DNA of 64,000 nt from Elusimicrobiota bacterium (lineage in GTDB: Bacteria > Elusimicrobiota > Elusimicrobia > UBA1565 > JACRDR01). Below are positions 33,117 through 60,244 of this stretch, piece by piece. The position numbers and the translations under genes are program-made. Under the pieces are notes generated by a model that was given only the letters and a program-made list of their open reading frames with translations, ran no database searches and was not told the DNA's origin. Within the stretch, counting starts at the first letter, position 1. Each line of letters begins with the position of its first letter. The stretch covers positions 1 to 64,000 of the forward strand of contig JBGFSC010000035.1 in assembly GCA_041694815.1 (NCBI GenBank), given 5' to 3'.

Positions 33117-36100
33117 ATGCAGGCATACTCCCCTCCGGCCTGGCATCGCTTTATCTCCCTGCTGCTCGCCCACGCCGTTCTTTGGCAGGCCCTCTACCCG
33201 GCGGCCGCGCTGGCGCTCGAGGGAGGGCGCCCGCTTCCCTCGCGACTGGGTTCCGCCGCCGAAAAATTGATCCAAGACGCGGGTTTGGAGAAGGGAAGCT
33301 TCGAGGGGGCGTTGCCGGAGCCCCCGGCGCCTCCCGAAGGCCGCGAAATAGCCGTCTTGTCGAGAAAGGACGAACCGGACTCCTGGAGCTTGCACGCCCG
33401 ATGGGCCCGGGAGGCCCGGCAGGATCTCTTGGCCCGAGTGCTCGGGCGGGCCGGCGTGCTGGAGCGCAAGGGCATCCAGGCGGAACATGTGGAGGCGTTG
33501 CGCAAGGCCGCCCAGGGCCTCGCCTACGCGGAGCTTAAGGCCCTCGTGGAGGCTTGGGGCCCGGTCCGAGCGGCGCGGCTGGGCCGGCTGCTCCTTTTCC
33601 TGAGCCGGGGGGACGCGGCGGTGGGCGCCTGGCTTCGCTCGCATCTGGGAGAGGCTCCCGCCGATGTCTCGATGGCCCTGCCCAGCCTGGCCGCCTTGCT
33701 TTCCATTCCTGATGACGCCGAGCGGCTCAAGGCGGACGCCCGGCGCGCGTTGCACGAGGCCTCGGCCAAGAGGCCGCCCACCGCCGACGGGGTTGCGCGG
33801 AAAAAAAGGAATTCTCGATCGGTGCCCTCTCCGGAGAAAGAAGCGCTCGAAAAGGCCAGCCTAGAGCGCCGATATGAGCAGGCGAAGCTCTCGCAGCAGC
33901 GGGATTTGGTCAATGGGGCCTCCAAGGGCGAGCCGGGGACGATCGAGCGGCTCAAGAAATTTTACGAGGGACTACTGCCCGCTCCGCCGGCCAACGGGGG
34001 GTTTGGCATGAGCGAATCCGCCGAGTCTAGGGCCGCGGCCCTGCAGGCCCTGCTCAAGGCATGGAACGGTGCGGCCCTGCGTAACTCGCCGCCGGAAGCG
34101 GCGTCCCAAGACAAAGCTCCCCTCGCCGGAACGCCGCAGGAAAAGGCGATTCTAGAATCGGTGTCGCGCATCGAATCCCTTAAGGTCCAGCTGCAGGACG
34201 CCATCGCCCTCCGCGAGACGGCGGCCGCGGCCGTGGCCGCCACGGAGTCGGCGCGCAACGCCGCGCTCAAGCTGCGGCGCGGCGGCCAGGACATGCTCGA
34301 ATTCCGCAAGAACCATGCTAGATTGGCGATGGTGACCGAGTTGAGCTACGCCAACAACGTGCTCACCGCCGCCCAAAAGGCCGTCGGAGGGATGCTCGCC
34401 ATCGTCGACCGCCGCATGGCCCAGATCGAGGAGGCCCGCGGCCGTGGCCAGGCCAACGCGGCGGCCACGCGCGCGAGGCAGGCCAAGAAAGGCGACTGGC
34501 AGCAGAAGGTCGACGAGGACGTAGCCGAGGACAATCGCCAGGCGGGCTTGTTCACCACGCTGCAGGAATTGGGCCAGATCTACGTGGACCGGGTCGAGGG
34601 GTTTAAGCTCGACGTCGGGAACCTGATCGCGGAGATCAACGGCAAGGACAAGGGGAGTAGCGCCGACGCTCCCAGCGAATACCGGCGGCGAAAGGCGATG
34701 GTCCCGGAACTCGAGCGTTGCGCCAGGGAAGATTGCGGCGATGGTTCGGGGGATATCAGCAATCTTTCGGTGGCCTCGCTCAAGAAACAGCTTGAAGAGG
34801 TTGATGGCTATATCGCCCAGATCGCCCAGGAGCGGGGCCAGTTCCGGGACCTGCCAATTCAGGGCGCCGCGCAATTGATCGTCTTCGTGCCGCCGATCCC
34901 GGAAGTGAAGGGGCATAATTTCGGCGCCGATCCGGCGGCGGTATTGCCGATTCTGCGTCAACGGAGACAGGAATTAGATAAACGCCTTGCGGACCTAACG
35001 AAGATGTGGTCGACCGCGCGGGACATGGCCGATCCTGGTTATGGCGGATCGCGCCAGAACGAATTCGGCGACTCCATTCCCGCTTCTCTCTCCAAATACC
35101 GCGAAAGCGAGGCGCAGAAGCTTAATGCCAATCGCTCCAAGATGAATAAGTTCGCCGCCCTCATCGACCAGACGGCGGCCAAATTGGGAGGCGGGCTCCC
35201 ATTGCTTTCGGGAAAGAGCGCCGAGGAGTTGCGGGAGGATCTCAAGAATTATCCGAATCAATTGCAAAGCCTCCGCTTCGAGGATTCCCTGGAAGGCAAT
35301 AAGTTGATGCTTGAAATGCTCAACATCGCCCGTTACCTGCCGTTGTTGGCCGACGCCACCATCCGAACCGCGGAGGCCGAGGGAACGATCAAGGTGGTCG
35401 ACGAGGCGATCCCGGTGGTACAAAAAGCGGCCGCGGGACTAAAGCTGGCCGTCGACGGAGTCCAGGGCTTGCTCGACGATGTCGCGGAGGACGAAACCTA
35501 TATCCGCAATTTCTCCAATGACCCCGGTAAGCAACAGGCTTTGATTAATCGCAAGAAAGACCTGGTAGAGCGGCTTGACATCATGCTTCGCCAACTCAAG
35601 GAACTGCTCGAGAAAACCCTGCTGCCGTTCCAGGAGAAGCGAGCGGGTTCCGGCGGCGCTTCGATGGAAGGCGGCGATAACTATAACACCCTCTATACCA
35701 TCAAGCTCGAGGTCTACGAGCTCATCGAGCATTTCCACAAGGTCGGCGTTCCCTGGCTATTGGCCTCGGTCGGGGCCCCGGAGAACAACCAGGGGCAGGC
35801 GAGGGCCAATATCGCCGGCTTCAGGCGGAAGCTCGACGAGTACAAACTCAACATCGCCGAGCTTCAGCGGCAGGTAAAATGCCGCAAGGATCCGGAATGC
35901 CAGGATCCCGACGAGGCCTACGGGGAGGCGATGCCGTATTCTCTGCCTCGGCGCATCAAGAAGTACGAGGAGGAGATGAGGCTCCGCGCGGCCCAGGTTA
36001 ACCGCCAGGCTTCGGCCATCAACGAAATCCTTGCCGACATCGATCGCGAGACAAACGGCCGATCCGGCCTTCAGCCATACGCCCTGCCGGCCGACGTCAA

Positions 36101-39100
36101 TCCCGAAGACCCCGGCGCCGCCGAGCGGCTCAAGCAGTTCGGCACCTCGGGAGCCGTCGACGGCTTGGTCGAGCGGCTCAAGCAGATAGCGGCGGCCGCC
36201 GAGCAGGGAGGAGGCGACGGCCTGAAGATGCCCTCGCTCGACGCCAGCGGCATCCCGACCGGCACCCAGCCCTCTCCGACCGTCAACGCGCAGCAGAAGA
36301 CCGCGCTTCTGGCCTTGGAGGCCGTCAAGCGCCTGGCTCCCTCCACGGCGGCGCCGGACGGCGACTCCTTCGCGGATGCCCTCAAGCGTTTCGTTTGGGC
36401 GGCCAGCGTTAAGGCCGCCTCCGAGGACGCGCTCGCCAACCAGGTCCCGCGCTACGACGAGCTTCTCAAGCGGGGCGATGAGATACTCGGGGAGATGTAC
36501 GCGGATCTCGAGGAGGATGCGCGCTATATCTCGGCCCCGGAGAGCGGCGGCCTCCAGCTCATGGCCCGCAAGATAGACCTCTACGGCCGCTTGCGGGACT
36601 TTTCCAAGCACGCGGTCGAGGTGTTCCAGCAAAAGGCGGCCGATGACCGCAAGGGTGCTGATACCATCAAGGACGTGGACACCTACCTCACGCTCGAGGG
36701 CTCCATTTACGAGCAAAGCGGGGCGATTCTCGACGCCGAGTACCAGGCGGCCAAGCTCTACGCCGACACCCTGGGCAACATGAAACGCCAGCTCGACGAC
36801 CAGGCCGATCAGGTCCGCAACTGGCTCAGCCAGCTCAACCCCGCCCAGGAGACGGCCTTAAACCGCCTGTCCCAGAGCATGTCCAGATTGATGGAGAGGA
36901 CGAAGGCGGTGCTTGAGACCAACGGCCCTTATTATAGCGCGCTCGACCTCTTCAAGAAGGCCGACCGGGACCTGATCGATTTGACCGAGCAGATGGGACT
37001 GGCCGAGAAGGAGCTTAAGAAAGCATTGGTTGACGAAAAAACGGCCAGCCGTTACCGCCGCGAGGATATGGGCGACGATTTGGCCGATAAGGTCGAGGCC
37101 TTGACCATGGCCGGAACGGCCTGGTTCGCCGAAGGCAAGGGCATACTGCCGCAGGCCATGATCATCCCCAAGAGCCACTTCGAGGAGTTCCTCGATTCGG
37201 TTCTGAGCTCGCTCGGAGGCCAGAACGCGGCCAGGCGCTTGGCGCAATCGGGAGGGGACCTCCCGGGCCCGATGATGCTCAGCCAGCTCATCCCGAACTC
37301 CAAGGTGCTGTCCTTGGGCGACCCGGGGACCGGCTTCTACGTCGCCTACCAGAGCAATTTCTCGGTCCCCAACGGCTTGGAGAGCGATTCCCAGGTCACG
37401 CTAGGCAACGTTGCCAGCGCCAATCTCTTCGGCGCCGAGCAGAACCTGAGTTTGATCGGCTACCGTTTCGCCTCTCCCCCCAACTCGGGCAACGCGCCCT
37501 ACGGCGACCGGGGCATTTCGGTCCAGCTCGAGTCCCTCGGCAAAAACGGCGCCAACTATCTGGACATTACCTTCCATCGGCTGCTCCAGGACATCCCCAA
37601 GGACAACGGCTTTAAGGCTCAGACCGAGGACAACCGCCTGATGGTCTTCGAGAATTTCGCCTTGATGGTCTCCAGCGGCCGCTTGTATCTGGGCGGCGCC
37701 GGCTTCGGCGATTTCGCCACCAGCGATTTGGGGCATGTCGATCCCCGCTCGCTCTGGCGGACCATGCGCCGCGGTTCCGATGGCTCCCAGCAGAAGCCGT
37801 ACTACTTCGGCGGCGCGCTGCAGCAATCGATCCGATTCAACGAGCTCATGGAGCTGACCGCCGAGCAGAGCGCCCTGTGGGCCAAGGACCCCCGCAGGTT
37901 CCTTCAGACCATCAACCTAGACTTCACCCAATACGACCCTCTCTTCGACCAGGACTTCGTCATCAGCGCGCGCGGAGATAGTAAGTACTTCAACAGGCAG
38001 AAATTCGGAGCCAGGTTCAATCTGGGAAGATTCCTGGGCCGCGGCTCAAAGGCGCCTTCCTTCACGCTGGAGCTCTACGGCTCGCGCTTGGACGGCTCCG
38101 ACGACATAGGGCAATGGGCTGGGGGCGCGACCGTGCTCAGCGGGATGTCCTTTGACGCCGGCCCGGGCTCTCCGTTCATGCCGGTGAGCGTCAACGCTTC
38201 CTTGACGGCCGAGGCCGGGCAGAAATACGAGACGGGCAAGGCCTTCCTCAACATCCAATTCCAAAAGGGGATCGCCTTCTCCGCCCAAGGCAAGATCATG
38301 CCGACCCATGAACAGCTCTTGGCGGGGGATCTTCGCGACGCGCCCGCCAACCTCATCGCCCAAGCGAGCATGAAGCTCAATCCCCAAACGGATATCTTCG
38401 TCTCCTACGGAAGCCCCTACCTCGGGCTCAACCCCCGCTTCACTCTGGGAAGCCATTTCATGACCAGCGTTGGCGACGTGTGGCGGACGGTATTCGAGAG
38501 GACCAAGAGGAGGATGTCGGGCGACCTTCCCCTCGAGCGCTTCAACAAGAACCTAGACGAGTTCTTCCGCCGCGACGGCGGCCCGCAGAATCCCCTCGTC
38601 CGCCAGCTCGAGCAGGTCTACGCCAACGACATCGGCAAAAAGCTGCTGAGCCTCGACATGGGGCAGTTCTCCAAGGATCTCGAGGACCTCGTCAACCAAG
38701 GGGCTTTTTTCGACAACACCCGCATGCATGGAACGGTCGGCTTCGTGCCGTGGGGCGTGGGAACCACGCTCGCCGACCGGGTCGCCGGGCCTGGCTTTCA
38801 AACGGGGACGATGACGCAGTTCGTGATGAAAAAAACGAAGAGGGTCGAGATCGAACGCAAGGTCGTCTCGATCTTCTCGGCGGGGCTCGCCCTGCAGGCG
38901 CGCCTCATCGAGCTCACCAAGGAATGGGAGCAGGCGGTCGCCGATATCCTGCAGGCCCAATGGGAGCTGCAGCTCGCGCAGTTCGCCTACAATACCGCGC
39001 AAGAGGATACGATGCGCCTCGACGCCGAGGGCAAGGCCTTGGAGGCTCAAATCCGGCTCAAGCAGGCGACTCTGCGCTACAATCTCCTGACCGGCCAGCG

Positions 39101-42100
39101 CCCCGAGACTCCCTTCCCATTCGAGCAGCTCAACGCCAACGATTACGAGCAAATGTTGGCGCGCTTGCGCGAGCTGTTGGGATCCACCGCGCGGCTGAGC
39201 TCCATCATGCGCAGCCTCGACGCCGACAAGCTGCGCCGTCCCGATGCCGCCGATCTCAGCGCTTTGGATAAGTTCTCGAGCCGATTCATCAACGCCATCC
39301 CCTTCATCGAGCAGATCACCTTCGGTTTCGGACAGCAGCTCTACGATAATCTTTCCAACCAGGTCATCGGCGGGGGATTGAGCGTCCGCCTTCCGCTTTA
39401 TGACTCGGATTCCCGGCTAAAGGAAGAAGCGTGGACCCTCAAGAATCGCGCGACGATCGACCAGATGCGCTCGGCCTTCGCCGAATACCGTCTGCGCGCC
39501 GCGCAAGAGAGGATGGCCGCCGAGGGCTTCGATGGGGCCGCCGAGCGGCTGCGCGAGGAGATGCGGCCCGCCGCCGACGCCTTCCAAAGGCAGATCGCCG
39601 CCTACCGTAACGGGCTCTGCCGGCGAGAGCAATTGTGGCAGGCCTACCGCCGCTGGCATTGGACGATCACCCGTCTCTTGGAAACCCGAAGCAAGACCGG
39701 CCTTAAGGCCGCTTGGGCGATGCTTGAGGGCGGCCAGGCCGCGGCCTGGCGGGGACTTGAGTCGCGCCTGCATCGCCCCGGCAAGGAACGGGACATGGGG
39801 GCGGTACCGAATGCCGCGACCGCGTTCGATCACGTGACGGAGGACGGCCGCTTCGACGAGTTCACGTTCCGCGCCGAGGCCGCGCGCCGCCTGAGCCTGG
39901 CCTCCTCGCGCCGCTTAGTCAAGCTGGCCGTCGACCTCAGCGTCTTTTCCAATTTCACCGCCGAGGGGCTGGCATGGCTGCCGGCTGTGGGAGCCACGGC
40001 CCTCGGCTTCTTCCCGATCCTGGGCGTCGACGTCAGGCCCCAGGAGCTGGCGGACTTGCAGAAGGCCCAGCATGGGGACGAGGCCGAGATGTTCGGGCAC
40101 TTGAAGTCGCAAGCCAAGGGCGAGGCCTCCCTGCTCTTCTTCGAGAATTACTCTTCTTATCGTGCCACCGAAGAGATACTCAAGATCTACCGCGACGATC
40201 TGCTGCCGGCCAAGCGCGCGGCGGCCTCCAGAAGGCCCGGCGACGACGCGGCCCAGGTCGAGCTCGCCCAGGCCGAGGCGCAGCAGGCGGCCCTCGCGGC
40301 GCAGCACGCCCAGACCCGCGCGGCCTTGAACGCGCTGCTCGGACGGCCCCTGGATTCGGCCTTCGACATGGCCCAGAACCCTAGGGAAGTGCTCGGCGAG
40401 CTCGAGAGGCGCTTGAAGGCGGCTCCCCCGCTGGAGTCCCGCAGGGAGGTGCTCAAGAGGCGCCTGGAGGTGGCGCGCAGCGTCGAGACGATCGTCGACA
40501 AGAATCTCAAGCTCGAGCATATGCGCGCCGAACCGGTCTCGCTGGTCGCGCGCGCCGTCGGGCGGCTTATTTCGGCCATCTCGGGTGGCGGGGACGCGAA
40601 GCCGGAGGCCGTCTCGCGCGCGCGGCAGCAGACCCTGCAGGCGGAGCGCGCCCTCCGCTCCTTCGAGAAGGGGCTTCCGGCGGCCGACGCCAAGCTGCGC
40701 TTCGAATTGAAGCTGGCCTCAGACGCCCTCTGCGCGATCCGCTACCGTCGGGATTCCGAAAGCCGGGTCCAGGCCTTGGCCCTCCAGCATCGTATCCGCT
40801 CCGCGCAGGCCCAATTAGCGGCCTTGGGCCGGTCGGTCGACGAGACGGCCGCCGACACCCCCTGCGGGGTCCAAACCGACCTTTCGCCCGCCGGGCGCTC
40901 GTCGGAGCGGTTGCCTCGCTCCCTGAGGGAAATGGAAAACCGCCTTGTCACCGCCTGCGAGAGCGAGACGGTGACCCCCGGCCCAGACGGCCTCGGCTCG
41001 GATGGCCCTCTCTACCCCGCCGAATCCGGTGCCCAATCCTATTCCCGCCTCAATTGGGTGCACCAATCGCTGGACATGAAGCCCGTCGCGGGCGATTGCT
41101 GGAACTGCGGGCAGTCCTTCCTGGAGAATTGGGTGGAATTGCGCCTGCGCCTGCCGCAGATGGGCCCGCCGAATCTCGCCTCGCTGGGACGGCTTCAGGA
41201 GGAGCGCGGCGACCAGCTGCACCGCGCCCAGATGGCGGCGGCCCGCGCGCGCGCGCGCGGGTTGCTCACCCGGTTTAAGGCGGCCGTCGAGCTCTACCGT
41301 TGGGCCGAGCGTTCGGCCCACGAGGGCGCGCCGCTTTTCAAGGAGCAAATGGAGTCGGCGATGCGCCGCGATTTCGCCGAGATCGCCGCGCATCTGGGGC
41401 TTTCCGGCGAGATCGGCTTCGAGCAGGCGATGCCCCTGGTCCCGCAGTATTCCACCGAGCCGTCCCAGATCGCCGAGCAGATGATCCGCGATCTCGAAAC
41501 GATCGACCAGGAGGCGGTGCGCCGCATCCTTTTCGAGGACGGGGTGCCGTTGGAATCGCTGCGCACCCAGCAGGAGATCTCGCAGCTTAAGGCCGACCGG
41601 GTCGCCAAGAGCATGAGCTACAAGGGCTTCACCCTGGCGGCCGCCTTCGGCTTTTTCCGCGGGCAGCGGGTGGGCGGGCTTTTCGTCGAGGCTCCCGACA
41701 TGAACCAGGTCCAGCGCCGCCTGGAGGAGATACTACTCGACGGCGTGCGGCAGGAATACGAGGGGAGGCAGCGGGTTAAGCAATTGGCGTTCCAATTGCA
41801 CGCGCTGATGGCTTCCGTGGCCGAGAAGACCCGGCTGCTGGAGAGCCGCCGTTCGCGACTGGAAGCGGCCCGGCGCAATCTCCGCGGGACCTGGGTGGAG
41901 CTGGGACGCGGCATGGCCCCGCCGAGCGCCGTGGCAGCGGCGCAGGCCGAGCTTGAGCGGGCCTGGAAGGAGTTCATCGAAACCCTGACCCGCCTGCGCA
42001 TGGAATTCGTGCAGCTCGTCAGCGAGCTTCAGGCGTTGGGGGAAAGGCCGACGGGGGTCGCCTCCAAGGGCGGGCAATGGAGCGCGCTGCGCGAGCTTCC

Positions 42101-44894
42101 CGGCGCGGAGGACGGTCCGCGGGCCCGGATGCTTCGTTATTGGTCCGAACGGATGCTGGACCCCGGTTTCGAGGCCCGGCTTCGCCCGCTGCTCGAGGGG
42201 GCCGTCGCGGTGCCGGCCGAAGACCGCCGGCGATTATCGAAGCTCGTCCAAGACGCGCGCGAGCTCAAGGAAGACGTCGATGTCATCCGGCATTCCTCCG
42301 AGTCCCCGGCCGCCAAGCTGGATCTCCTGACGAAGGCGGACCTAGAGGGACGCCGGCAGAAGATCGAGGCGGCGCTGGACCGGATATTGTCCGGCCTCGA
42401 GGCTCCTTCCGGGCAGGGCCCGAGCGCCGCGGCCCAGTCGGCGCAGGCCCTGCATAAGTTCTTGAGCGAGGATTTGCGGCAGCAGGCCTCGGCGGCGGAC
42501 GGCGAGGTGCTGGGCCAGCGCCGCGTCGAGTACGCCATGCGCGACGCGTACTGGAACGCGGTCAAGGCCCCGCCCAGCTTCCAGAAGATATACCTCCGCT
42601 TGAGCGGGCTTTCCGAGTCGCTCGATGATCTGCGAGGCGCCTTCCTGGGTTCCTACATGGAGCATCGGGAACGGCCCGAGGATTTCATGCTCCGCGACGC
42701 GAGGCTCGACGAGTACTTGAAGGCGCAGCTTGCCTACGACGAGGCGGTGATCCGGGCCTTCCAGAACCCGAACCTAAGGCGCTCGAAGCGCTTCGCGCAG
42801 GCCTTGGGGTCGCTATTCTCGCTGCAGGAAAGCTTGGAGCGGCAGCGCGACTTTAAGCGCTACGGCCGGGGGCTCTTGGCGATCGACGCCTTGATCGCCG
42901 CCGAAAAGGCGAGGCTCGACGGGATGCGCTTTAATCGCGCGGGACCCTTGGAGTTCGGCCCCGTGGCCCAGAGAATCGCCTGGTTGGAGGACCTGCGCCG
43001 CCGTTGGATGGAACGCCCGGGCGAGCTCGAGGGTGTGGCCGCCGCCCGAGATGCTCGGGGCCGCGTCGCGGAATGGATCCCGATCCGTGAGCTCGACGGT
43101 TTGAAGAAGGCGGGGCGCCTGATCGCGGCTGCCGGCAGCAGGTGGGTGCTGGGCCCAGCCCAGGCGGGCTTGGCGCACTCGACGACCGAGCAGCTGCGCG
43201 GCGGCGGGGCGCTCGAGCTCGAGGAAGGCCCGGACGCGGCTGTAGCTAGGGCCGAGAGCGAGCGCCTGGAGCGGTGGCGGCAGAGGCTCGGGCAATGGAA
43301 GGCGCAGGCCTTGGCCGGCGCGGAGTTCGTCGCCCTGCCGTACGATCTCGACGGGGAGCCGTCGGAGACCCAGCTGGAGCGCCTCTCGCTAGAAGAGCTG
43401 CGGCGCAGGGAACGCCAGGGCCTGGTGCTTTATTTCGACGCCCAAAAGGATCGGCGGGGTCTGCACCCGGCCCTGCACCCCTTCCAGGCGATGCGCATGA
43501 ACCCGAGGGATTTGCGGATCTACTTGAGCACCGCCCCCATTTTCGGCCGGTTCGGGACTCTGGAGGCCTTGCGCGAGAATTGGGGGCGTGGCGGCCTGCG
43601 CGTGCTGGAGATGGGTGCGATGGGAGCCAAGGCCCTCGCCTCGGAAGCGGCGCGGCGCCGGGACCTCTCCATGGCCTTGGGCTGGGTGGAGCTCAAGCTG
43701 GAAGGCTACGGCTTCGCCTTGGATCCGGACGGACTCGTCGCCGGGGTCTACATGGACAAGAAGGAGTACCGCGAGGCCCAGGCGCCGGCCGCGGCCTCCA
43801 AGGGATCCGGGCGCAAATTCCATTTGAGCAAGGACCTGCATTGGGGCTTGGACTCGCAGAACCGGCTCGTTTCCGTCCGCTTGAAGGGCAAGGCCCTGTG
43901 GGAAACGGAAGGTCGGCCGCGCCGTTGGGTCAAGGGCGAGGTGGAGGGAGTTGAAATCGCCCAGGACGTGCGGCTCGTGCGCGTCTTCGGCGACGTCACG
44001 GGGCCGTCGAGGAAATGGGAGATGGAGGACATGGAGGGCAGGCGTTACGCGCCCAACGCCAGGAAGATCCCTCCGAATTTCCGCCTCAAGCGCTACATCG
44101 ACCCTGAGACGGGGCTCCCGGTCCTTTTGGGCCGGCGGGTGCTCGAGGCCTATGTCCAGGCCGCCGACCGGCACAGCGGAGGCATTCGACGCTGGCCGTT
44201 CGTGAACCTTCCGGACCTGGTGGCCCAAATACCGCGAAGCATTTTCCATGACCTGACCTTCCGCAGCAGCATCACCGGAATAGACGCCAGGCAGGACAGC
44301 TATCTCGGCCGGGTCTACGCGCACCGGCTCGAAGGCAGCGCCGGCGACGACAACGCCCTCCTCAAGCTGGTCCGCTTCCTCGACATCTTGGACCTGTTGC
44401 CCGATCCCGTTGAGGGCTATCGGGACCCGAGCCAATTCCCCGATGAGATCGAGCTCGATGACAAGCCGCTCGCGGGAGAGCCGATTTACGCCCTGGATCC
44501 CGACGCGAAAGGAAAAGATATCACTTGGGGCCTTGCCGGACTGCTGCGCCAGAGGGGATACGCGCGCGAGGATATCGAGGCGGCGCGCGGGAGGATACTC
44601 GCGGCCTTTCAGGGGGGCGTGCAGTCGGTGCTGCTGCACACCGTGCTCGGAAGGAACCGCCCCTACATCGAGGCGCAGAGCCGGGTGGAGGCCGGCGAGG
44701 AGGCCATCGACGCCGCCCTGGAGGAGCTCGGCTTGGAGGGTGCCGACGGGCGCGCCCTGCTGCAGGTCGACCCCAAGAGCATACAGGTCGACCATGTCTC
44801 GGCCGACGTGCAGATCTTCATGGGCGCTCGGGAGTACGAGGCCCAGCGCCGCCGCTACGAGCTCTACGCCGAAGAACTAGCCAAGAAAAAATAG
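33117..44894 (+). CDS. Giant exported envelope protein (3925 aa) with helical region, putative beta-barrel and tandem TolC/OEP-like repeats
   Basis: Uninterrupted 11.8-kb ORF with GC3-rich codons and signal-like ...ISLLLAHAVLWQALYPAAALA. Amphipathic strands at about 37330-38470. OEP-like motifs include GGGLSVRLPLYD, AYRNG....EQL, LAQAEAQ...RAALNALLGRP and YNLLTG. Confidence 0.85.
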   Translation: MQAYSPPAWHRFISLLLAHAVLWQALYPAAALALEGGRPLPSRLGSAAEKLIQDAGLEKGSFEGALPEPPAPPEGREIAVLSRKDEPDSWSLHARWAREARQDLLARVLGRAGVLERKGIQAEHVEALRKAAQGLAYAELKALVEAWGPVRAARLGRLLLFLSRGDAAVGAWLRSHLGEAPADVSMALPSLAALLSIPDDAERLKADARRALHEASAKRPPTADGVARKKRNSRSVPSPEKEALEKASLERRYEQAKLSQQRDLVNGASKGEPGTIERLKKFYEGLLPAPPANGGFGMSESAESRAAALQALLKAWNGAALRNSPPEAASQDKAPLAGTPQEKAILESVSRIESLKVQLQDAIALRETAAAAVAATESARNAALKLRRGGQDMLEFRKNHARLAMVTELSYANNVLTAAQKAVGGMLAIVDRRMAQIEEARGRGQANAAATRARQAKKGDWQQKVDEDVAEDNRQAGLFTTLQELGQIYVDRVEGFKLDVGNLIAEINGKDKGSSADAPSEYRRRKAMVPELERCAREDCGDGSGDISNLSVASLKKQLEEVDGYIAQIAQERGQFRDLPIQGAAQLIVFVPPIPEVKGHNFGADPAAVLPILRQRRQELDKRLADLTKMWSTARDMADPGYGGSRQNEFGDSIPASLSKYRESEAQKLNANRSKMNKFAALIDQTAAKLGGGLPLLSGKSAEELREDLKNYPNQLQSLRFEDSLEGNKLMLEMLNIARYLPLLADATIRTAEAEGTIKVVDEAIPVVQKAAAGLKLAVDGVQGLLDDVAEDETYIRNFSNDPGKQQALINRKKDLVERLDIMLRQLKELLEKTLLPFQEKRAGSGGASMEGGDNYNTLYTIKLEVYELIEHFHKVGVPWLLASVGAPENNQGQARANIAGFRRKLDEYKLNIAELQRQVKCRKDPECQDPDEAYGEAMPYSLPRRIKKYEEEMRLRAAQVNRQASAINEILADIDRETNGRSGLQPYALPADVNPEDPGAAERLKQFGTSGAVDGLVERLKQIAAAAEQGGGDGLKMPSLDASGIPTGTQPSPTVNAQQKTALLALEAVKRLAPSTAAPDGDSFADALKRFVWAASVKAASEDALANQVPRYDELLKRGDEILGEMYADLEEDARYISAPESGGLQLMARKIDLYGRLRDFSKHAVEVFQQKAADDRKGADTIKDVDTYLTLEGSIYEQSGAILDAEYQAAKLYADTLGNMKRQLDDQADQVRNWLSQLNPAQETALNRLSQSMSRLMERTKAVLETNGPYYSALDLFKKADRDLIDLTEQMGLAEKELKKALVDEKTASRYRREDMGDDLADKVEALTMAGTAWFAEGKGILPQAMIIPKSHFEEFLDSVLSSLGGQNAARRLAQSGGDLPGPMMLSQLIPNSKVLSLGDPGTGFYVAYQSNFSVPNGLESDSQVTLGNVASANLFGAEQNLSLIGYRFASPPNSGNAPYGDRGISVQLESLGKNGANYLDITFHRLLQDIPKDNGFKAQTEDNRLMVFENFALMVSSGRLYLGGAGFGDFATSDLGHVDPRSLWRTMRRGSDGSQQKPYYFGGALQQSIRFNELMELTAEQSALWAKDPRRFLQTINLDFTQYDPLFDQDFVISARGDSKYFNRQKFGARFNLGRFLGRGSKAPSFTLELYGSRLDGSDDIGQWAGGATVLSGMSFDAGPGSPFMPVSVNASLTAEAGQKYETGKAFLNIQFQKGIAFSAQGKIMPTHEQLLAGDLRDAPANLIAQASMKLNPQTDIFVSYGSPYLGLNPRFTLGSHFMTSVGDVWRTVFERTKRRMSGDLPLERFNKNLDEFFRRDGGPQNPLVRQLEQVYANDIGKKLLSLDMGQFSKDLEDLVNQGAFFDNTRMHGTVGFVPWGVGTTLADRVAGPGFQTGTMTQFVMKKTKRVEIERKVVSIFSAGLALQARLIELTKEWEQAVADILQAQWELQLAQFAYNTAQEDTMRLDAEGKALEAQIRLKQATLRYNLLTGQRPETPFPFEQLNANDYEQMLARLRELLGSTARLSSIMRSLDADKLRRPDAADLSALDKFSSRFINAIPFIEQITFGFGQQLYDNLSNQVIGGGLSVRLPLYDSDSRLKEEAWTLKNRATIDQMRSAFAEYRLRAAQERMAAEGFDGAAERLREEMRPAADAFQRQIAAYRNGLCRREQLWQAYRRWHWTITRLLETRSKTGLKAAWAMLEGGQAAAWRGLESRLHRPGKERDMGAVPNAATAFDHVTEDGRFDEFTFRAEAARRLSLASSRRLVKLAVDLSVFSNFTAEGLAWLPAVGATALGFFPILGVDVRPQELADLQKAQHGDEAEMFGHLKSQAKGEASLLFFENYSSYRATEEILKIYRDDLLPAKRAAASRRPGDDAAQVELAQAEAQQAALAAQHAQTRAALNALLGRPLDSAFDMAQNPREVLGELERRLKAAPPLESRREVLKRRLEVARSVETIVDKNLKLEHMRAEPVSLVARAVGRLISAISGGGDAKPEAVSRARQQTLQAERALRSFEKGLPAADAKLRFELKLASDALCAIRYRRDSESRVQALALQHRIRSAQAQLAALGRSVDETAADTPCGVQTDLSPAGRSSERLPRSLREMENRLVTACESETVTPGPDGLGSDGPLYPAESGAQSYSRLNWVHQSLDMKPVAGDCWNCGQSFLENWVELRLRLPQMGPPNLASLGRLQEERGDQLHRAQMAAARARARGLLTRFKAAVELYRWAERSAHEGAPLFKEQMESAMRRDFAEIAAHLGLSGEIGFEQAMPLVPQYSTEPSQIAEQMIRDLETIDQEAVRRILFEDGVPLESLRTQQEISQLKADRVAKSMSYKGFTLAAAFGFFRGQRVGGLFVEAPDMNQVQRRLEEILLDGVRQEYEGRQRVKQLAFQLHALMASVAEKTRLLESRRSRLEAARRNLRGTWVELGRGMAPPSAVAAAQAELERAWKEFIETLTRLRMEFVQLVSELQALGERPTGVASKGGQWSALRELPGAEDGPRARMLRYWSERMLDPGFEARLRPLLEGAVAVPAEDRRRLSKLVQDARELKEDVDVIRHSSESPAAKLDLLTKADLEGRRQKIEAALDRILSGLEAPSGQGPSAAAQSAQALHKFLSEDLRQQASAADGEVLGQRRVEYAMRDAYWNAVKAPPSFQKIYLRLSGLSESLDDLRGAFLGSYMEHRERPEDFMLRDARLDEYLKAQLAYDEAVIRAFQNPNLRRSKRFAQALGSLFSLQESLERQRDFKRYGRGLLAIDALIAAEKARLDGMRFNRAGPLEFGPVAQRIAWLEDLRRRWMERPGELEGVAAARDARGRVAEWIPIRELDGLKKAGRLIAAAGSRWVLGPAQAGLAHSTTEQLRGGGALELEEGPDAAVARAESERLERWRQRLGQWKAQALAGAEFVALPYDLDGEPSETQLERLSLEELRRRERQGLVLYFDAQKDRRGLHPALHPFQAMRMNPRDLRIYLSTAPIFGRFGTLEALRENWGRGGLRVLEMGAMGAKALASEAARRRDLSMALGWVELKLEGYGFALDPDGLVAGVYMDKKEYREAQAPAAASKGSGRKFHLSKDLHWGLDSQNRLVSVRLKGKALWETEGRPRRWVKGEVEGVEIAQDVRLVRVFGDVTGPSRKWEMEDMEGRRYAPNARKIPPNFRLKRYIDPETGLPVLLGRRVLEAYVQAADRHSGGIRRWPFVNLPDLVAQIPRSIFHDLTFRSSITGIDARQDSYLGRVYAHRLEGSAGDDNALLKLVRFLDILDLLPDPVEGYRDPSQFPDEIELDDKPLAGEPIYALDPDAKGKDITWGLAGLLRQRGYAREDIEAARGRILAAFQGGVQSVLLHTVLGRNRPYIEAQSRVEAGEEAIDAALEELGLEGADGRALLQVDPKSIQVDHVSADVQIFMGAREYEAQRRRYELYAEELAKKK

Positions 44895-48605: not shown

Positions 48606-51116
48606 ATGGAAAAACTTCTAAACGATATCGAACTCAAGGACGAATGCGTCCTGCACCCTCCTGAACTGGCGCGCTTTGACCGCGGTGATTTAAGCGTATT
48701 CCTCGATGGCGAATCCCCGAATTGGATCGCTCTCGACGGGCGCGGCGCGGCGCTTTTTAAGCTCTTCGACGGCCGGCGCGCTCTCGGGGAGATCCGTCGC
48801 CTGCACGGGAACTCGAGCGGCGCCGACGCGGGGAAATCATGGCTCGACGTGCATTCCTTCGCCCGGGAGCTGCTGCGCGCGGGGATGCTTTCCTTCTCCC
48901 CCGTCTCGCGCCCGGGCTACGCGGGCCGGGCCGCGCATCTAACACCCAGCCGCCTTTCGGAATTCTGGCTGCACCTGCTGCAAACCTGCAACATCGCCTG
49001 CACGCATTGCCTGGTCTCCTCCGGACCTTCCGGGGAAAAAGGCCCTGAGGCTTCCTTTATAAAAGGCCTAATCGATCAGGCCCATGCCCTGGGGGCGCGC
49101 CGGTTTTACTTCACGGGAGGAGAGCCCTTCGCCCGGGAGGATATCCTCGAGCTCATCGGCCATGCCGCGGGGACGAAGGAGTCGGAACTCGTGTTGATGA
49201 CGAATGCGACGCTGCTCACGCCGCAGCGCCTGGCCAAGCTCGAGGGCTTAGGCAAGGAGCGGATCAAGTTCCAGGTCAGCCTTGACGGGGCGACGGGCGC
49301 CGTCAACGACGCCATCCGGGGGAAGGGCGTTTTTGAGAAGGCCTCGGCGGGCCTACGCGCGCTTTCTAAGCTCGGCTTCGACTGCTCGTTGACCGCCGTC
49401 GTCACCAGCGCGAACCTTCGGGACCTTCGGGGCCTGCCGGAATTAGCCGAGCGGCTCTTTGCCAGGTCGCTGCACCTCATGTGGGCGCACAAGCGCGGGC
49501 GCATCCTCGAGGAGGGCGGGGCCTTCCCGTCCAATCCCCAACTGCTGGAGCTCGCGCGCGCTCTCCGCGGCGAATGCCGGCGCCGCGGGCTAATGTTCGA
49601 CAACTCGGAGTCGCTGCGCCGCCGGGCCGACGGCAGGCCGGGGGTCAAGAACGATCTCGGCAACCAATGCTGGCAGAGCCTCTGCCTCTACCGGGACGGG
49701 AAGGTGTACCCGTCGGCGGCGATGGCCGGCGAGGCCCCGCTGGAGTTGGGCGACGCCCGCTGGCTTCCCCTCGAGTCGATATGGCTAGACAGCCCGACGG
49801 CGCGGCGCTTCCGGGAAGCGAGCGTGGTGGACGCCTCCGATCCTTTCCGTTTCCTGAGCGGAGGCGGAGACATCGAGCATTCCTACTTCTTTTCCGCCAA
49901 CGGCGGCCCGGGCTCCTTGGTCGGGCACGATCCCTATTATGGGCTGATCGTCGAGCTGATGAAAGACGAGATCTTCGACATGGCGGAGCAGGCCAAGTCG
50001 CGCTTCAACGCCCGTTCGGGGCTGAGGCCCCCCGTCGTGCTGCGGGCCATGGGAGAGGGCGCTGTGGGCTGCTCGAGCGACGCCTTGGATTGGCTGGGCG
50101 AGGGCGGCAAGCCGGAGGTCGTGCGGCTGACGCATTCCAACTGCGTGCTCTCCTTCGACGTCGAAAGGCCCTACCGCGTCGTCCGGCAATTCTACGCGGG
50201 CGCCGCGCTCAAGCCCAAGGAGGATCTCTGCTGTCCGGTGAAATACGCCGAGGACGAGGTCGGGCATATCCCCAAGGACGTGCTCGAGCGCTTCTACGGC
50301 TGCGGCTCGCCGGTCTCTCAAGCGGGGCTACGCTACGGTGAGACCGCCTTGGACCTGGGGTCGGGCGCCGGCATTGACTGCTTCATCGCGGCAAAGAAGG
50401 TCGGCCCGAAGGGCAAGGTGATCGGCATCGACATGACAGGCGAGATGCTGGAGGTGGCCAGGCGCTGCCAGAGGCAGGTGGCGGAGTCCCTCGGCTACGA
50501 CGCCGTCGAGTTCCGCGAGGGGCTCTTGGAGAAGGTGCCCGCGGCGGACCGGAGCGTCGATCTGGTCACCTCCAACTGCGTGATCAACCTCTCCCCCGAC
50601 AAGCGGAAGGTATTCGCCGAGATATGGCGCGTGCTCAAGGACCACGGGCGCATGCTCGTAGCCGACATCGTTTCCGATCGGCCCGTGCCGCTCAACCTAC
50701 AGGCCCACAAGGATCTCTGGGGCGAGTGCATCTCCGGCTCGCTTTCCGAACAGGAGTTCCTCTACGGCTTGGAGCGCGCCGGATTCTACGGCGTCTCGGT
50801 GCTCAAGCGCGACTTTTGGAAGGAAGTCGAGGGTTATCGATTCTATTCCCTGACGGTGCGGGGATACAAATTCGAGAAGAAGGCGGGCTGCCGCTTCCTC
50901 GGGCAGGCGGCCGTCTACCTCGGGCCCCACAAGGCGATCATCGACGAGGAGGGGCATCTCTTCCCCCGCTACGAGCCCGTCGAGGTCTGCACCGACACGG
51001 CGGCCAAACTCTCGCGCCCTCCCTACGCGGGCCAATTCCTGATCTCCGGGACTTCCTCACCCCAAGCCCCGGAGCCAGAGCAGGCCTGCTGCGCGCCGGG
51101 AGGGGCCTGCTGCTAA
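48606..51116 (+). CDS. Radical SAM domain fused to an ArsM/AS3MT-like methyltransferase
   Basis: N-terminal PqqD/RRE-like segment, [14 protein letters not shown] and QVSLDG. C-terminal [38 protein letters not shown] and a CC...CC tail. Confidence 0.88.
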
Positions 51117-51823
51117 AAAGCGAAAGAAGGGCCCTGCTCTTCGCCAAGGCTCCGGCGCCCGGCCTCGTCAAAACGAGGCTTTGCCCCCCCTTGTCGAAGG
51201 AAGAGGCCGCCGAGCTTTACCGGGCCTTCGCGCGCGACAGCCTATCGCTGCTGCTGCGGGCCCTGGATCCCGAGGAAATCCAAATCGCCTACGCCGGCGC
51301 GGACGGGGATTCGGAGCCCGGCTGGCTCCGCGGCGGGATCGCCGTGGAGCATTTCGCGCAGGAAGGGGCGGATCTCGGGGAACGGCTTCGCCGCGCCTTC
51401 GAGCGATCCCTCCGGCAGGCCAGCCTTGTTGTGATCATCGGTTCCGACACGCCTCACCTGGATCCAAGGGAAATCACCCGGGCCTTCGACGCGCTGGAGA
51501 GAAAGGATATGGTCCTGGGCCCCGCCGAGGATGGCGGGTACTATTTGATCGGACTTAAATCCCCGCAGCCGCGGCTTTTCGCCGATATTCCATGGTCGAC
51601 CGCTCGGGTTCTTGGCCTCACGCTTGAACGGGCCGAAGAGCTTCGCCTCTCCACCGAGCTTTTGCCGGCATACCGCGATATAGACACCGCCGATGATTTG
51701 AGCCAGTTAGCGGGGCTGGAAGAGACGACCCCCCTGGCATTTACCAGAAAGGTCCTGAGCGCCTTGCCGGATTTTAATTTTTCGGCCGCGGGGTCGACGC
51801 CAGGGCGTCGAAGGCGGCCTTAA
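51110..51823 (+). CDS. DUF2064 / TIGR04282 family glycosyltransferase-like protein
   Basis: FAKAP.PG.VKTRL, Q.G.DLGERL, IGSD.P, LGPAEDGGYYLIG, IPWST and DID...D. No ATG/GTG/TTG start lies near the conserved N-terminus; a CTG start lies 6 nt after GGAGG. Confidence 0.85.
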   Translation: MLKSERRALLFAKAPAPGLVKTRLCPPLSKEEAAELYRAFARDSLSLLLRALDPEEIQIAYAGADGDSEPGWLRGGIAVEHFAQEGADLGERLRRAFERSLRQASLVVIIGSDTPHLDPREITRAFDALERKDMVLGPAEDGGYYLIGLKSPQPRLFADIPWSTARVLGLTLERAEELRLSTELLPAYRDIDTADDLSQLAGLEETTPLAFTRKVLSALPDFNFSAAGSTPGRRRRP

Positions 51824-58555: not shown

Positions 58556-58957
58556 CTACCTTCTCGGATAGCGACGGCGGCGTGGAATATGCCCTTCACA
58601 ATAGAGAATATCGGTGCGCCGTTCGAGTTTGTCCGCATCGAGGGGACTTGAAGGTATTACAATGAGCTCGCAGCCAAAACCGGCGAAGACCCGGCGCAGA
58701 GTGCTGATACGCACATCCTGACCGCATTCGATCTTGGCAATTTTTGACGCCGGCAGACCAGAAAGCAATGCTAATTGACGTTGCGTCATGTCGAAGCGCC
58801 GGCGCATCCATCGCAGCACCTCAGCCAAGGTTTGCCGATGCCAATCCTCTGGCAGCTTGCGCGCTGCAAGAAGCACCTCGTTGATCGGGTCATATCGCGG
58901 ATCCCTTAATAAGCCAGCGAGTTGTCGTAGCGCCTGAGCATCCGAAATCGGGGCCAT
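58556..58957 (-). CDS. XRE/Cro-family helix-turn-helix protein
   Basis: LRWMRRRFDMTQRQLA..SGL..SKIAKIE.G.D.RISTL......GC. Confidence 0.85.
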   Translation of the reverse strand: MAPISDAQALRQLAGLLRDPRYDPINEVLLAARKLPEDWHRQTLAEVLRWMRRRFDMTQRQLALLSGLPASKIAKIECGQDVRISTLRRVFAGFGCELIVIPSSPLDADKLERRTDILYCEGHIPRRRRYPRR

Positions 58958-59077: not shown

Positions 59078-59494
59078 TTACGTGAGTTTACCGGATCCCC
59101 TTTCTCGCCTCACGCTTGCCAAGAGCGCGGCCGACTTCTTCTTAAGCCACTCGCGATGCTCTTCCTGAGGCCGGCTCGCGGACCCGTCCTCCCAGGCGAT
59201 CTCCTCGATGGTGACCCACGAGTTTCCCGCCCCGAAAGCCCAGCAGCCGAGCGTCCGGAGCGGGTCGCCCGCGGGCAGTCGTTCCGCGTAACGCCGGTAC
59301 GGATGGCCCAACGGGACCGGGCAGCGGCGTTCGACGGTCTCGGCCCAAGCGGCAAGATTATGATCCTTCTGCACGCAGCTTTCGCGAACGGCTTCTAGGA
59401 CCTTCCTCGGCTTGCCCTCGACCAGTTTGAGGCCGTCGGCCCTGCCCGATAGGAATGGAATCAAGTTGTAGATTCGCACGCTCCTGGCGTTCAT
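59078..59494 (-). CDS. Hypothetical protein
   Basis: 138 aa with GC3-rich codons; ATGA overlap with the upstream antitoxin. Confidence 0.65.
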   Translation of the reverse strand: MNARSVRIYNLIPFLSGRADGLKLVEGKPRKVLEAVRESCVQKDHNLAAWAETVERRCPVPLGHPYRRYAERLPAGDPLRTLGCWAFGAGNSWVTIEEIAWEDGSASRPQEEHREWLKKKSAALLASVRRERGSGKLT

Positions 59495-59823
59495 CGGTCC
59501 CTAACCGTCCCCATCGCCAAGCCCGATGCGTATACCGACCCCGGGTCGATGCTGGGGGCCTCCTGCTCGGCCCTCTCTTGGAGCCACTGCTGCATCAGCG
59601 TCTGGTAGGGGACGCCGCGGTGCTCGGCGATCCGCCGGATCTTGCGCACCAAGTCCAGGTCGATTCGGATCGAAAGCAAGTGCTTGGCGGGTCCCTTGAG
59701 CCTCATCCTGACCGGCCTAAATTCGTCCAAATGCTCGGTCAAGGAGTGCTTGTCCCAGTAGGCCGATTCCGCCTTCAAGGACTTAAAGACAGGCAGCTTC
59801 TTGGTCTTCTTTTTCATGGTCAT
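59491..59823 (-). CDS. BrnA/CopG-type antitoxin
   Basis: LP.FKS..AE..YWD.H, LSIRID, I..IA...GVPYQTLM.QWL.ER. ATGA overlap with the toxin gene. Confidence 0.88.
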   Translation of the reverse strand: MTMKKKTKKLPVFKSLKAESAYWDKHSLTEHLDEFRPVRMRLKGPAKHLLSIRIDLDLVRKIRRIAEHRGVPYQTLMQQWLQERAEQEAPSIDPGSVYASGLAMGTVRDR

Positions 59824-60095
59824 CCGGCGTGCCTCTCGTAGAGGTCGCGTTCGCTTTCCGTCATGTCCCGGGCCGTGATGATCAACGCTCTTCCACGCCC
59901 GATTTTCTCGAAGAAGACGATCACGCGCCGTCCCGCGTCCGTGCGTCCGAGCAGGGCGTAACGCCCGCCCTGGGCCTTGTGGATATGGGTGAGCGGCCCG
60001 AAGCAGGCCTCCTCGACTTTCTCGGGCTGGAGCCCATGCTTCCGTTGGACCTTCTCCGCGATCTCGCGGATCCAGACGATCTCGACGAGCCTCAC
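59820..60095 (-). CDS. BrnT-family toxin
   Basis: W.......K...KHG....VEE, R...LGRT.AGR and IITARDMT.SER.LY. GGAGG site upstream. Confidence 0.9.
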   Translation of the reverse strand: MRLVEIVWIREIAEKVQRKHGLQPEKVEEACFGPLTHIHKAQGGRYALLGRTDAGRRVIVFFEKIGRGRALIITARDMTESERDLYERHAG

Positions 60096-60109
60096 GGCCG
60101 GCCTCCTGA

Positions 60110-60138
60110 AGTATATACGACGTAGCTACTAAGGTCAA
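60110..60138 (-). promoter_or_regulatory. Sigma70 promoter of the second brnTA-like operon
   Basis: TTGACC-17 bp-TATACT on the minus strand. Confidence 0.75.
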
Positions 60139-60244
60139 GGCCAATCCCCATGCCTACAGGTACGAATAACATCCCAGTTTAGTTCCAATTGCTCGTTTTG
60201 GTTCCGGGGTTTCCGGGCTATAAGGTCGGCGCTTCGGCTCGGCG

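Follow-up and report, generated by a model that had tools for sequence, protein, structure and literature searches.

A radical SAM and ArsM-like fusion protein with a TIGR04282 partner: candidate core of an organoarsenical pathway in Elusimicrobiota and other bacteria

The fusion gene and its proposed role

A 64 000-nt stretch of DNA from an Elusimicrobiota bacterium (contig JBGFSC010000035.1, positions 1 to 64,000; here termed the window) carries at 48606..51116 on the forward strand a gene for an 836-aa fusion protein. The protein joins four parts: an N-terminal domain resembling the recognition element (RRE) of enzymes that act on ribosomally synthesized and post-translationally modified peptides (RiPPs), a radical S-adenosylmethionine (SAM) core, a degenerate SPASM domain, and a methyltransferase of the ArsM type. 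A TIGR04282/DUF2064 gene adjoins it downstream. From homology and gene neighbourhoods we lean, by no great measure, towards the reading that these two genes form the core of an arsenosugar-type organoarsenical pathway. The fusion would then, on balance, stand in for the separate enzymes ArsS and ArsM without being their orthologue.

The frame at 48606–51116 is open and intact and ends with the TAA at 51114–51116. It contains the radical SAM motif at residues 128–141 and the motifs LCCP (541–544), YGCGSP (564–569), SNCVINL (656–662) and WGEC (705–708), as well as the terminal CCAPGGACC. Pfam places Radical_SAM (PF04055) at residues 126–271 (1.1e-17) and Methyltransf_31 at 578–726 (2.1e-31), and the top NCBIfam model for the whole protein is the arsenite methyltransferase NF008823 (3.5e-68). 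An AlphaFold2 model computed from a 64-sequence alignment has a mean predicted confidence (pLDDT) of 88.5 and a predicted template-modelling score (pTM) of 0.89. The open frame, the motifs and the family matches bear out the sequence-only reading in its central point, that RRE-like, radical SAM and ArsM parts lie in one 836-aa protein.

The radical SAM core spans residues ~118–300 (48957..49505). Its cluster ligands C128, C132 and C135 are invariant in all 118 aligned full-length homologues, and the CX3CX2C motif together with the GGEP SAM motif (171–174) is invariant across the fusion family. The N-terminal domain (residues ~1–95, 48606..48890) has in the model strands at 22–26, 29–34 and 39–43 and helices at 45–51, 60–71 and 75–91, as assigned by DSSP. 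Residues ~20–91 thus have the topology of PqqD and the RRE, with three strands ahead of three helices, and Foldseek and phmmer alignments to the fusion cover the N-terminal parts of SkfB, CteB and SuiB. The PqqD family PF05402 is not detected by Pfam in the window's protein at E <= 0.01; it is precomputed for 8 of 121 listed family rows. A SPASM/twitch-like domain with linker follows at residues ~301–519 (49506..50162), with most cluster cysteines gone. The protein ends in a predicted disordered tail (51054..51113; pLDDT < 50 for residues 817–836), which across the family has the consensus CCxPGxxCC, with C829 at 88%, C835 at 97% and C836 at 96% among the 118 homologues.

The ArsM-like half

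The methyltransferase part, including its C-terminal domain, comprises residues ~520–816 (50163..51053). Searches of the PDB with phmmer give CrArsM (5evj, 4.5e-42), CmArsM (4fr0, 1.2e-39) and human AS3MT (8xt7, 1.2e-37), covering residues 526–816. The best 12 Foldseek matches are all ArsM/AS3MT structures (E 4e-24 to 1e-21, 33–36% identity over 282–306 columns), and the three-domain ArsM fold, with N-terminal, Rossmann SAM-binding and C-terminal domains, is matched by this half of the model.

C542, C543, C566, C658 and C708 are conserved in 118 of 118 full-length homologues. The YGCGS, SNCV and GEC motifs line up with like motifs in 4fr0 and 5evj, and the first ArsM cysteine (CC 542/543) is aligned in the 5evj alignment only. 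The corresponding catalytic or arsenic-binding residues of CmArsM are C44, C72, C174 and C224. The As(III)-methyltransferase cysteine pattern, first noticed from the letters alone, is thus upheld by alignment to solved enzymes and by its invariance. In a tree of methyltransferase domains, the main fusion proteins form one distinct clade (17 rows, SH-aLRT 98).

A conserved but unnamed family

A word-indexed protein search with the fusion gives 1782 matches. The best 120 of these are ~820–885 aa long, apart from three shorter partials, and are 50–74% identical over 96–100% of the query. The family has more than 120 full-length clusters in several phyla; by source names these include Elusimicrobia, Nitrospirota, Acidobacteriota, Nitrospinae, Omnitrophica, Wallbacteria and Deltaproteobacteria. 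The source names for the homologues are only ‘methyltransferase domain-containing protein’ or a two-part COG name, and full-text literature searches, whose reach did not extend to subscription-only papers, found no description of the fusion. By its sequence conservation this is a family in its own right, as yet without a name.

Its distribution is patchy. Whole-genome searches, from which the fusion loci were gathered (a single-protein locus search gave only 4 full-length loci), find the fusion in 6 of 41 genomes of the window's order, one copy being fragmented. It is present in 6 of 251 sampled genomes of the phylum of the Nitrospirota locus and in 2 of 251 of the phylum of the Acidobacteriota locus. 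A free-standing RRE–radical SAM half did not turn up in a search of shorter proteins, which gave strong contig-end fragments and then MftC-like or small radical SAM proteins at <= 113 bits.

One Nitrospirota genome (G276) has three paralogous fusion genes (L053, L055, L056), 49–51% identical to that of the window. A PiT permease gene follows two of them, and one lies near a true MerA (TIGR02053, 547 bits) and DUF3047. There is also a divergent fusion clade (L057, G256:C113; L058, G277:C87) of ~803 aa and 38% identity, with a B12-binding radical SAM gene directly after the fusion and, in L058, a GAF/sigma-54 activator upstream. The methyltransferase half of this clade groups with generic stand-alone ArsM-like proteins and not with the main fusion clade.

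The downstream TIGR04282 gene

The partner gene (51107..51823, forward strand) encodes a protein with a predicted CofC-like nucleotidyltransferase fold. The TIGR04282 model scores 194–197 bits on it (194.2 and 196.7) against a cut-off of 134, PF09837 (DUF2064) scores 118–121 bits (2.2e-34), and it is the sole DUF2064 gene in the 2.77-Mb genome.

The long open reading frame (ORF) at 50624–51823 overlaps the fusion by 493 nt, but this overlap is an artefact of ORF calling, since high-GC DNA leaves that frame open. Homology to TIGR04282 extends over 51134–51700 and so begins 18 nt past the TAA of the fusion. There is no ATG, GTG or TTG in the DUF2064 frame between 50816 and 51191. Close to where homology begins, the frame offers only CTG codons as candidate starts, at 51107, 51110 and 51134, and a canonical start codon seems to be missing. 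A Shine–Dalgarno-like sequence read from the DNA, GGGAGGGG at 51098..51105 on the same strand, precedes the first two and may serve in ribosome binding. Translation is likely to start at CTG 51107 or 51110 behind it, or at CTG 51134. The extent of homology and these candidate starts give a true overlap of 0–10 nt, and the two genes seem tightly coupled, not deeply overlapping. The earlier claim that the fusion overlaps a DUF2064/TIGR04282 gene therefore holds for the identity and adjacency of the partner and has to be given up for the large overlap.

Neighbourhoods and co-occurrence in relatives

Fifteen other fusion loci (L001, L002, L004, L039–L041, L052–L060) were compared by tblastn, Pfam and NCBIfam. 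DUF2064/TIGR04282 is found within about 4–7 kb of the fusion in six of them (L002, L039, L040, L041, L060 and, weakly, L059), and in L060 it begins 3 nt past the stop of the fusion. A 1242-aa open frame at this Acidobacteriota locus was considered as a triple fusion with DUF2064 and rejected: the fusion stops at a TGA, and the DUF2064 ATG follows 3 nt on in the same frame.

The family-2 glycosyltransferase TIGR04283 stands beside TIGR04282 in L039 and L040, and also after the 3′ end of the fusion in the fragment G029:C454. In L041 the two accessory proteins are encoded in a single 460-aa ORF (L041:10475–11857, reverse strand; G021:C8) directly upstream of the fusion gene; such an arrangement suggests that they act together. 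Both families therefore adjoin the fusion in L039, L040 and L041, and in the window TIGR04282 does so.

Other neighbours recur. A PiT/PHO4 permease adjoins the fusion in four loci (L001, L039, L053, L056), a MerA-like flavoprotein (NF004991, about 800 bits) is present in four (L001, L039, L040, L053), DUF3047 in two of the 15, and a PstS-like binding protein in one. The fullest operon, G020:C17, has on one strand genes for PiT, the fusion, a fatty-acid-hydroxylase-like protein, TIGR04283, TIGR04282, DUF3047 and NF004991. A relative that lacks the fusion has the classic cassette (G030:C21), composed of an aquaporin-family gene, ArsS (425 bits), ArsM, TIGR04283 and TIGR04282. The two accessory genes that come after ArsS and ArsM in that cassette are thus also the companions of the fusion.

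TIGR04282 exceeds its cut-off in 5 of 6 fusion-bearing genomes of the order and in 2 of 35 that lack the fusion (G005 and G024), counts that overstate independence because the 41 genomes are kin. The sixth fusion-bearing genome is a 580-contig assembly, and in G030 TIGR04282 falls just below the cut-off, at 133 bits. ArsS is over its cut-off in only 2 of the 41 genomes, and the window's genome is not one of them. The sequence-only reading had paired the fusion with TIGR04282 by proximity and had proposed a neighbourhood comparison; the adjacency in the window and in six of the 15 loci, the co-occurrence, and the pairing with TIGR04283 and TIGR04282 that is shared with the classic cassette all support the link.

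The neighbourhoods bear on the element that is handled. The permeases adjoining the fusion give equal scores for the sulfate (CysP) and phosphate (PitA) permease models, and ArsM enzymes methylate other metalloids too. In addition, NCBIfam selenoprotein families that contain ArsM-like domains match the fusion (NF041537, 156 bits; NF047649, 146 bits). The same enzymatic logic might thus be applied to another soft metalloid or chalcogen (Se, Te or Sb) imported as an oxyanion, with an organoselenium or organoantimony product. However, the nearest solved relatives are all As(III) methyltransferases, and the associated TIGR04282 and TIGR04283 genes accompany ArsS, an enzyme tested on trivalent dimethylarsenic, DMAs(III). 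On these structural and neighbourhood comparisons we regard a substrate other than arsenic as unlikely.

Arsenic genes elsewhere in the genome

The absence of arsR, arsC and acr3 near the locus, remarked on from the sequence, is confirmed: none turned up among the 33 window ORFs by Pfam. Searched across the whole genome, Acr3 finds no match and ArsC none above its cut-off (models for ArsB and ArsR were not part of this search), and the fusion is the only ArsM-like protein.

These findings could also be read in terms of detoxification. As the sole ArsM-like protein of a genome without Acr3 or ArsC over cut-off, the fusion could provide through methylation the cell's only arsenic defence; the radical SAM half would be an accessory, for reductive activation, demethylation or re-reduction of a catalytic disulfide, and the products would be methylarsenicals only. 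Against this stand the obligate fusion and the invariance of the SAM-cleavage motifs in 118 of 118 homologues, which argue for a catalytic radical step, and the linkage to the glycosyltransferase-like gene set found with ArsS. Pure detoxification therefore seems very unlikely.

Proposed mechanism

From the architecture, the conserved residues, the family spread, the neighbourhoods and the co-occurrence we infer every chemical step of the arsenosugar-type scheme, arsenic as the substrate and substrate channelling included. The ArsM-like thiols (C542/543, C566, C658 and C708) would bind As(III), and methylation by SAM would give methyl- and then dimethyl-As(III). The radical SAM domain, with a 4Fe-4S cluster on C128/C132/C135, would reductively cleave a second SAM and form a further C–As bond. 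The simplest such step would be addition of the 5′-deoxyadenosyl radical to arsenic, as when ArsS makes 5′-deoxy-5′-dimethylarsinoyl-adenosine (DDMAA). Passages in two papers describe that reaction as adenosylation of DMAs(III) to DDMAA (PMC13598754, PMC12159101). C360, C489 and C513 of the cysteine-depleted SPASM domain, with the flexible CCxPxxxCC tail, might hold the toxic arsenical and pass it between the active sites. The TIGR04282 protein (CofC/MobA-like fold) and the TIGR04283 glycosyltransferase could then process the arseno-ribosyl product further.

The radical SAM half and points against the proposal

A number of results weigh against this scheme, beginning with those from the radical SAM half. 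The ArsS model TIGR04167 scores 61–64 bits on the fusion against a cut-off of 300 and aligns over model positions 3–150 only, and identity to a relative's ArsS is 27% over 154 residues. The ArsL model NF040542, searched against the whole genome at E <= 0.001, has 11 matches, none of them at the fusion (C21:48606–51116). These scores and the low identity speak against the half being ArsS or ArsL, and such an identity, which was considered, is rejected. Since the half resembles neither, identical chemistry cannot be assumed. The best NCBIfam models for it are the Rv1681 family (NF049973, 102 bits), AhbD (91), MftC (87) and StsB (86).

The named ArsM models also stay below their curated cut-offs: NF008823 at 230 of 263 bits, NF040538 at 209 of 500 and NF038099 at 148 of 400. 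The ArsM of the classic cassette in G030 itself reaches only 193 bits on NF008823. The profile searches that had been suggested for each half thus give a divided result, an ArsM-type best match that lies under the ArsM thresholds, together with the ArsS and ArsL results above. In the methyltransferase tree the ArsM-like clades have no resolved branching order, and very long branches carry both L025 and the outgroup rows. No experimentally tested ArsM was included, and L015, L016, L017 and L027 were dropped as they had no ORF over the match. The tree neither confirms nor refutes nesting of the fusion methyltransferases within bona fide ArsM.

A further point is that the predicted fold of the fusion and its N-terminal RRE are of the peptide-maturase type. 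After the ArsM matches, Foldseek places the N-terminal half on SkfB (7.8e-18), CteB, SuiB, anSME, ChlB, TigE and PqqE, with a TM-score of 0.70–0.72 over 470–483 columns for CteB, and phmmer aligns residues 19–275 with SkfB. This raises the question of whether the protein is a RiPP-type enzyme. In that case the RRE would recognize a carrier protein or a leader peptide; the radical SAM domain would introduce a cross-link or another radical modification, and a thiol or other group in the same peptide would be methylated by the ArsM-like domain, with or without any part for arsenic. The maturase-like fold and the occasional PF05402 assignments in the family agree with this.

The SPASM region does not. 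Aligned with MftC-like SPASM proteins, the fusion retains the SPASM hairpin, but S370 takes the place of the GX4C (‘YPC’ hairpin) cysteine, the CX2CX5CX3C block is absent, and the seven-cysteine motif is not kept. The usual auxiliary Fe-S clusters, for which maturases use these cysteines, are probably absent because of the S370 replacement and the loss of that block. The cysteines left in the region among the 118 homologues are C355 (64%), C360 (99%), C489 (94%) and C513 (100%), the last within the motif HSNCVLSFD. An unusual cluster might be built on these three or four thiols, or they might, as we propose, make up an arsenic-binding site. Moreover, Pfam annotation of ORFs of at least 80 aa in the window and the 15 loci reveals no precursor-like small gene, leader peptidase or RiPP exporter by the fusion. 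The recurring neighbours (PiT, the family-2 glycosyltransferase, the CofC-like protein and the flavoprotein reductase) are of small-molecule type, and all four As(III)-binding ArsM cysteines are invariant. A role in peptide modification is, from these comparisons, quite unlikely.

The neighbourhoods offer less than full agreement with the arsenosugar-type reading as well. In nine of the other 15 loci DUF2064 is missing from the surroundings; several of the nine lie on short contigs, which is not the case for L001, L053, L054 and L055. The equal CysP and PitA scores leave the imported oxyanion undefined. TIGR04283 is commoner than the fusion, being over cut-off in 13 of the 41 genomes, among them the fusion-less G001–G005. 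The word ‘arsenosugar’ attached to TIGR04282 and TIGR04283 comes from NCBIfam, and this naming is not known to have a basis in experiment beyond co-occurrence. In the literature, the pertinent passage of PMC8801600 merely uses the label ‘arsenosugar biosynthesis gene’ for TIGR04282.

In the window's own genome the set is incomplete or dispersed. The other neighbours in the window (TauE, pterin-4a dehydratase, a zinc-dependent alcohol dehydrogenase, a response regulator with GGDEF and two-component genes) look unrelated to the pathway. The genome's TIGR04283 gene is unlinked (contig C9:42687–43358), and it may be unrelated to the fusion, since the fusion-less G001–G005, the rest of the family, also have TIGR04283 over cut-off. 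It lies beside DUF1015, NadD and a pyruvate-kinase-like gene, which were considered as further pathway genes and set aside as unrelated; no homology links the ORFs that precede TIGR04283 in G000 and in G024. By tblastn the genome has no close NF004991 homologue (best 29–32% identity) and no DUF3047, and its only PiT-like genes, at 24–34% identity, are on contig C25 and none is beside the fusion. The idea of a self-contained, compact pathway thus does not hold: in relatives the set also includes TIGR04283, a PiT permease, a MerA-like flavoprotein and DUF3047, and the window's genome has its TIGR04283 on another contig.

Comparison with known systems

The ArsM and ArsS arsenosugar pathway, with an ArsS (TIGR04167) reportedly characterized from Synechocystis, is the nearest parallel. 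In both systems an ArsM-type methyltransferase with conserved arsenic-binding cysteines is coupled to a radical SAM enzyme, and both adjoin TIGR04283 and TIGR04282 (G020:C17 compared with G030:C21). The fusion differs in being one chain, radical SAM part first, whereas the classic cassette has ArsS and then ArsM as separate genes. Its radical SAM homology to ArsS is limited to the superfamily core, and an RRE and a cysteine-depleted SPASM domain are found where ArsS has a C-terminal domain of its own. The pathway is referred to in passages of PMC12159101 and PMC13598754.

The second parallel is with ArsL and ArsM of arsinothricin biosynthesis (NF040542 and NF040538). ArsL belongs to the B12-domain type and cleaves SAM in a non-canonical way; in this it differs from the fusion, which in turn has no ArsL match and stays well below the threshold of NF040538. 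The likeness would be in the chemistry: one report describes radical SAM formation of a C–As bond alongside ArsM-type methylation in arsinothricin synthesis (bioRxiv 10.1101/2024.02.01.577332), and the fusion may combine the same two activities.

RiPP maturases such as CteB, SkfB, SuiB, MftC and PqqE share with residues ~1–480 of the modelled fusion an RRE, a partial TIM barrel and a SPASM-like hairpin, and at the sequence level MftC and StsB rank high among the matches to its core. The fusion is unlike them in the loss of the seven-cysteine SPASM motif, in its attachment to ArsM, and in its small-molecule neighbourhoods, where no precursor was seen among ORFs of at least 80 aa.

Of interest also is a split trio of genes in relatives (L062, G028:C1:303651–306231; L063, G024:C116), and by search matches also in G013, G035, G039 and G001. 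It consists of an ArsM-like gene, a ~300-aa radical SAM gene and a distant TIGR04283-like family-2 glycosyltransferase. The small radical SAM protein scores 109–114 bits with the Rv1681 family, which is the best model for the fusion's core as well; it is 36% identical to that core and has the C-terminus FCVLGGxSC. The trio differs from the fusion in that its genes are separate and in opposite order, its radical SAM protein has no RRE or SPASM-like domain, and its ArsM comes from another clade. It looks like a split, uncharacterized counterpart of the fusion, and as a repeated association of ArsM with radical SAM it counts in favour of the arsenosugar-type reading.

Significance

Two radical SAM reactions that form C–As bonds are named in parts of one paper: adenosylation by ArsS (arsenosugars) and 3-amino-3-carboxypropyl transfer by ArsL (arsinothricin) (PMC12159101). 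Our comparisons favour to a slight extent the view that the fusion works like the ArsM and ArsS pair, yet with a radical SAM half outside both ArsS and ArsL. If this is true, the family adds a third C–As-forming radical SAM enzyme, from another branch of the superfamily and joined to its methyltransferase. Complex arsenic species in groundwater, soil and sediment could then come from communities without ArsS, and the fusion would offer a natural single-chain system in which to study the transfer of toxic intermediates, DMAs(III) for example, from one SAM-dependent active site to another.

A bolder version is possible but doubtful. The fusion might be a third and mechanistically distinct enzyme, a former peptide maturase whose re-used RRE and cysteine-depleted SPASM domain keep at the radical site an arsenical, the enzyme's own cysteine-rich tail or a small carrier with a thiol. 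Anaerobic uncultured bacteria without ArsS would use it to make an organoarsenical, perhaps other than a classical arsenosugar.

Other features of the window and genome

On contig C48 of the same genome, numerous radical SAM genes cluster at about 8–57 kb. Several are of the B12-binding type, and the group surfaced as repeated weak matches to the ArsS, ArsL and Rv1681 models.

In the window, a 3925-aa ORF at 33117–44894 (forward strand) has no Pfam family at E <= 1e-5; it may encode a giant protein of unknown type or be an open-frame artefact of high GC content. A CopG/BrnA-type antitoxin-like ORF (59491–60144) and an HTH_3 ORF (58556–58957), both on the reverse strand, lie in a stretch of lower GC (0.58 compared with ~0.65), which may be a small mobile or toxin–antitoxin region.

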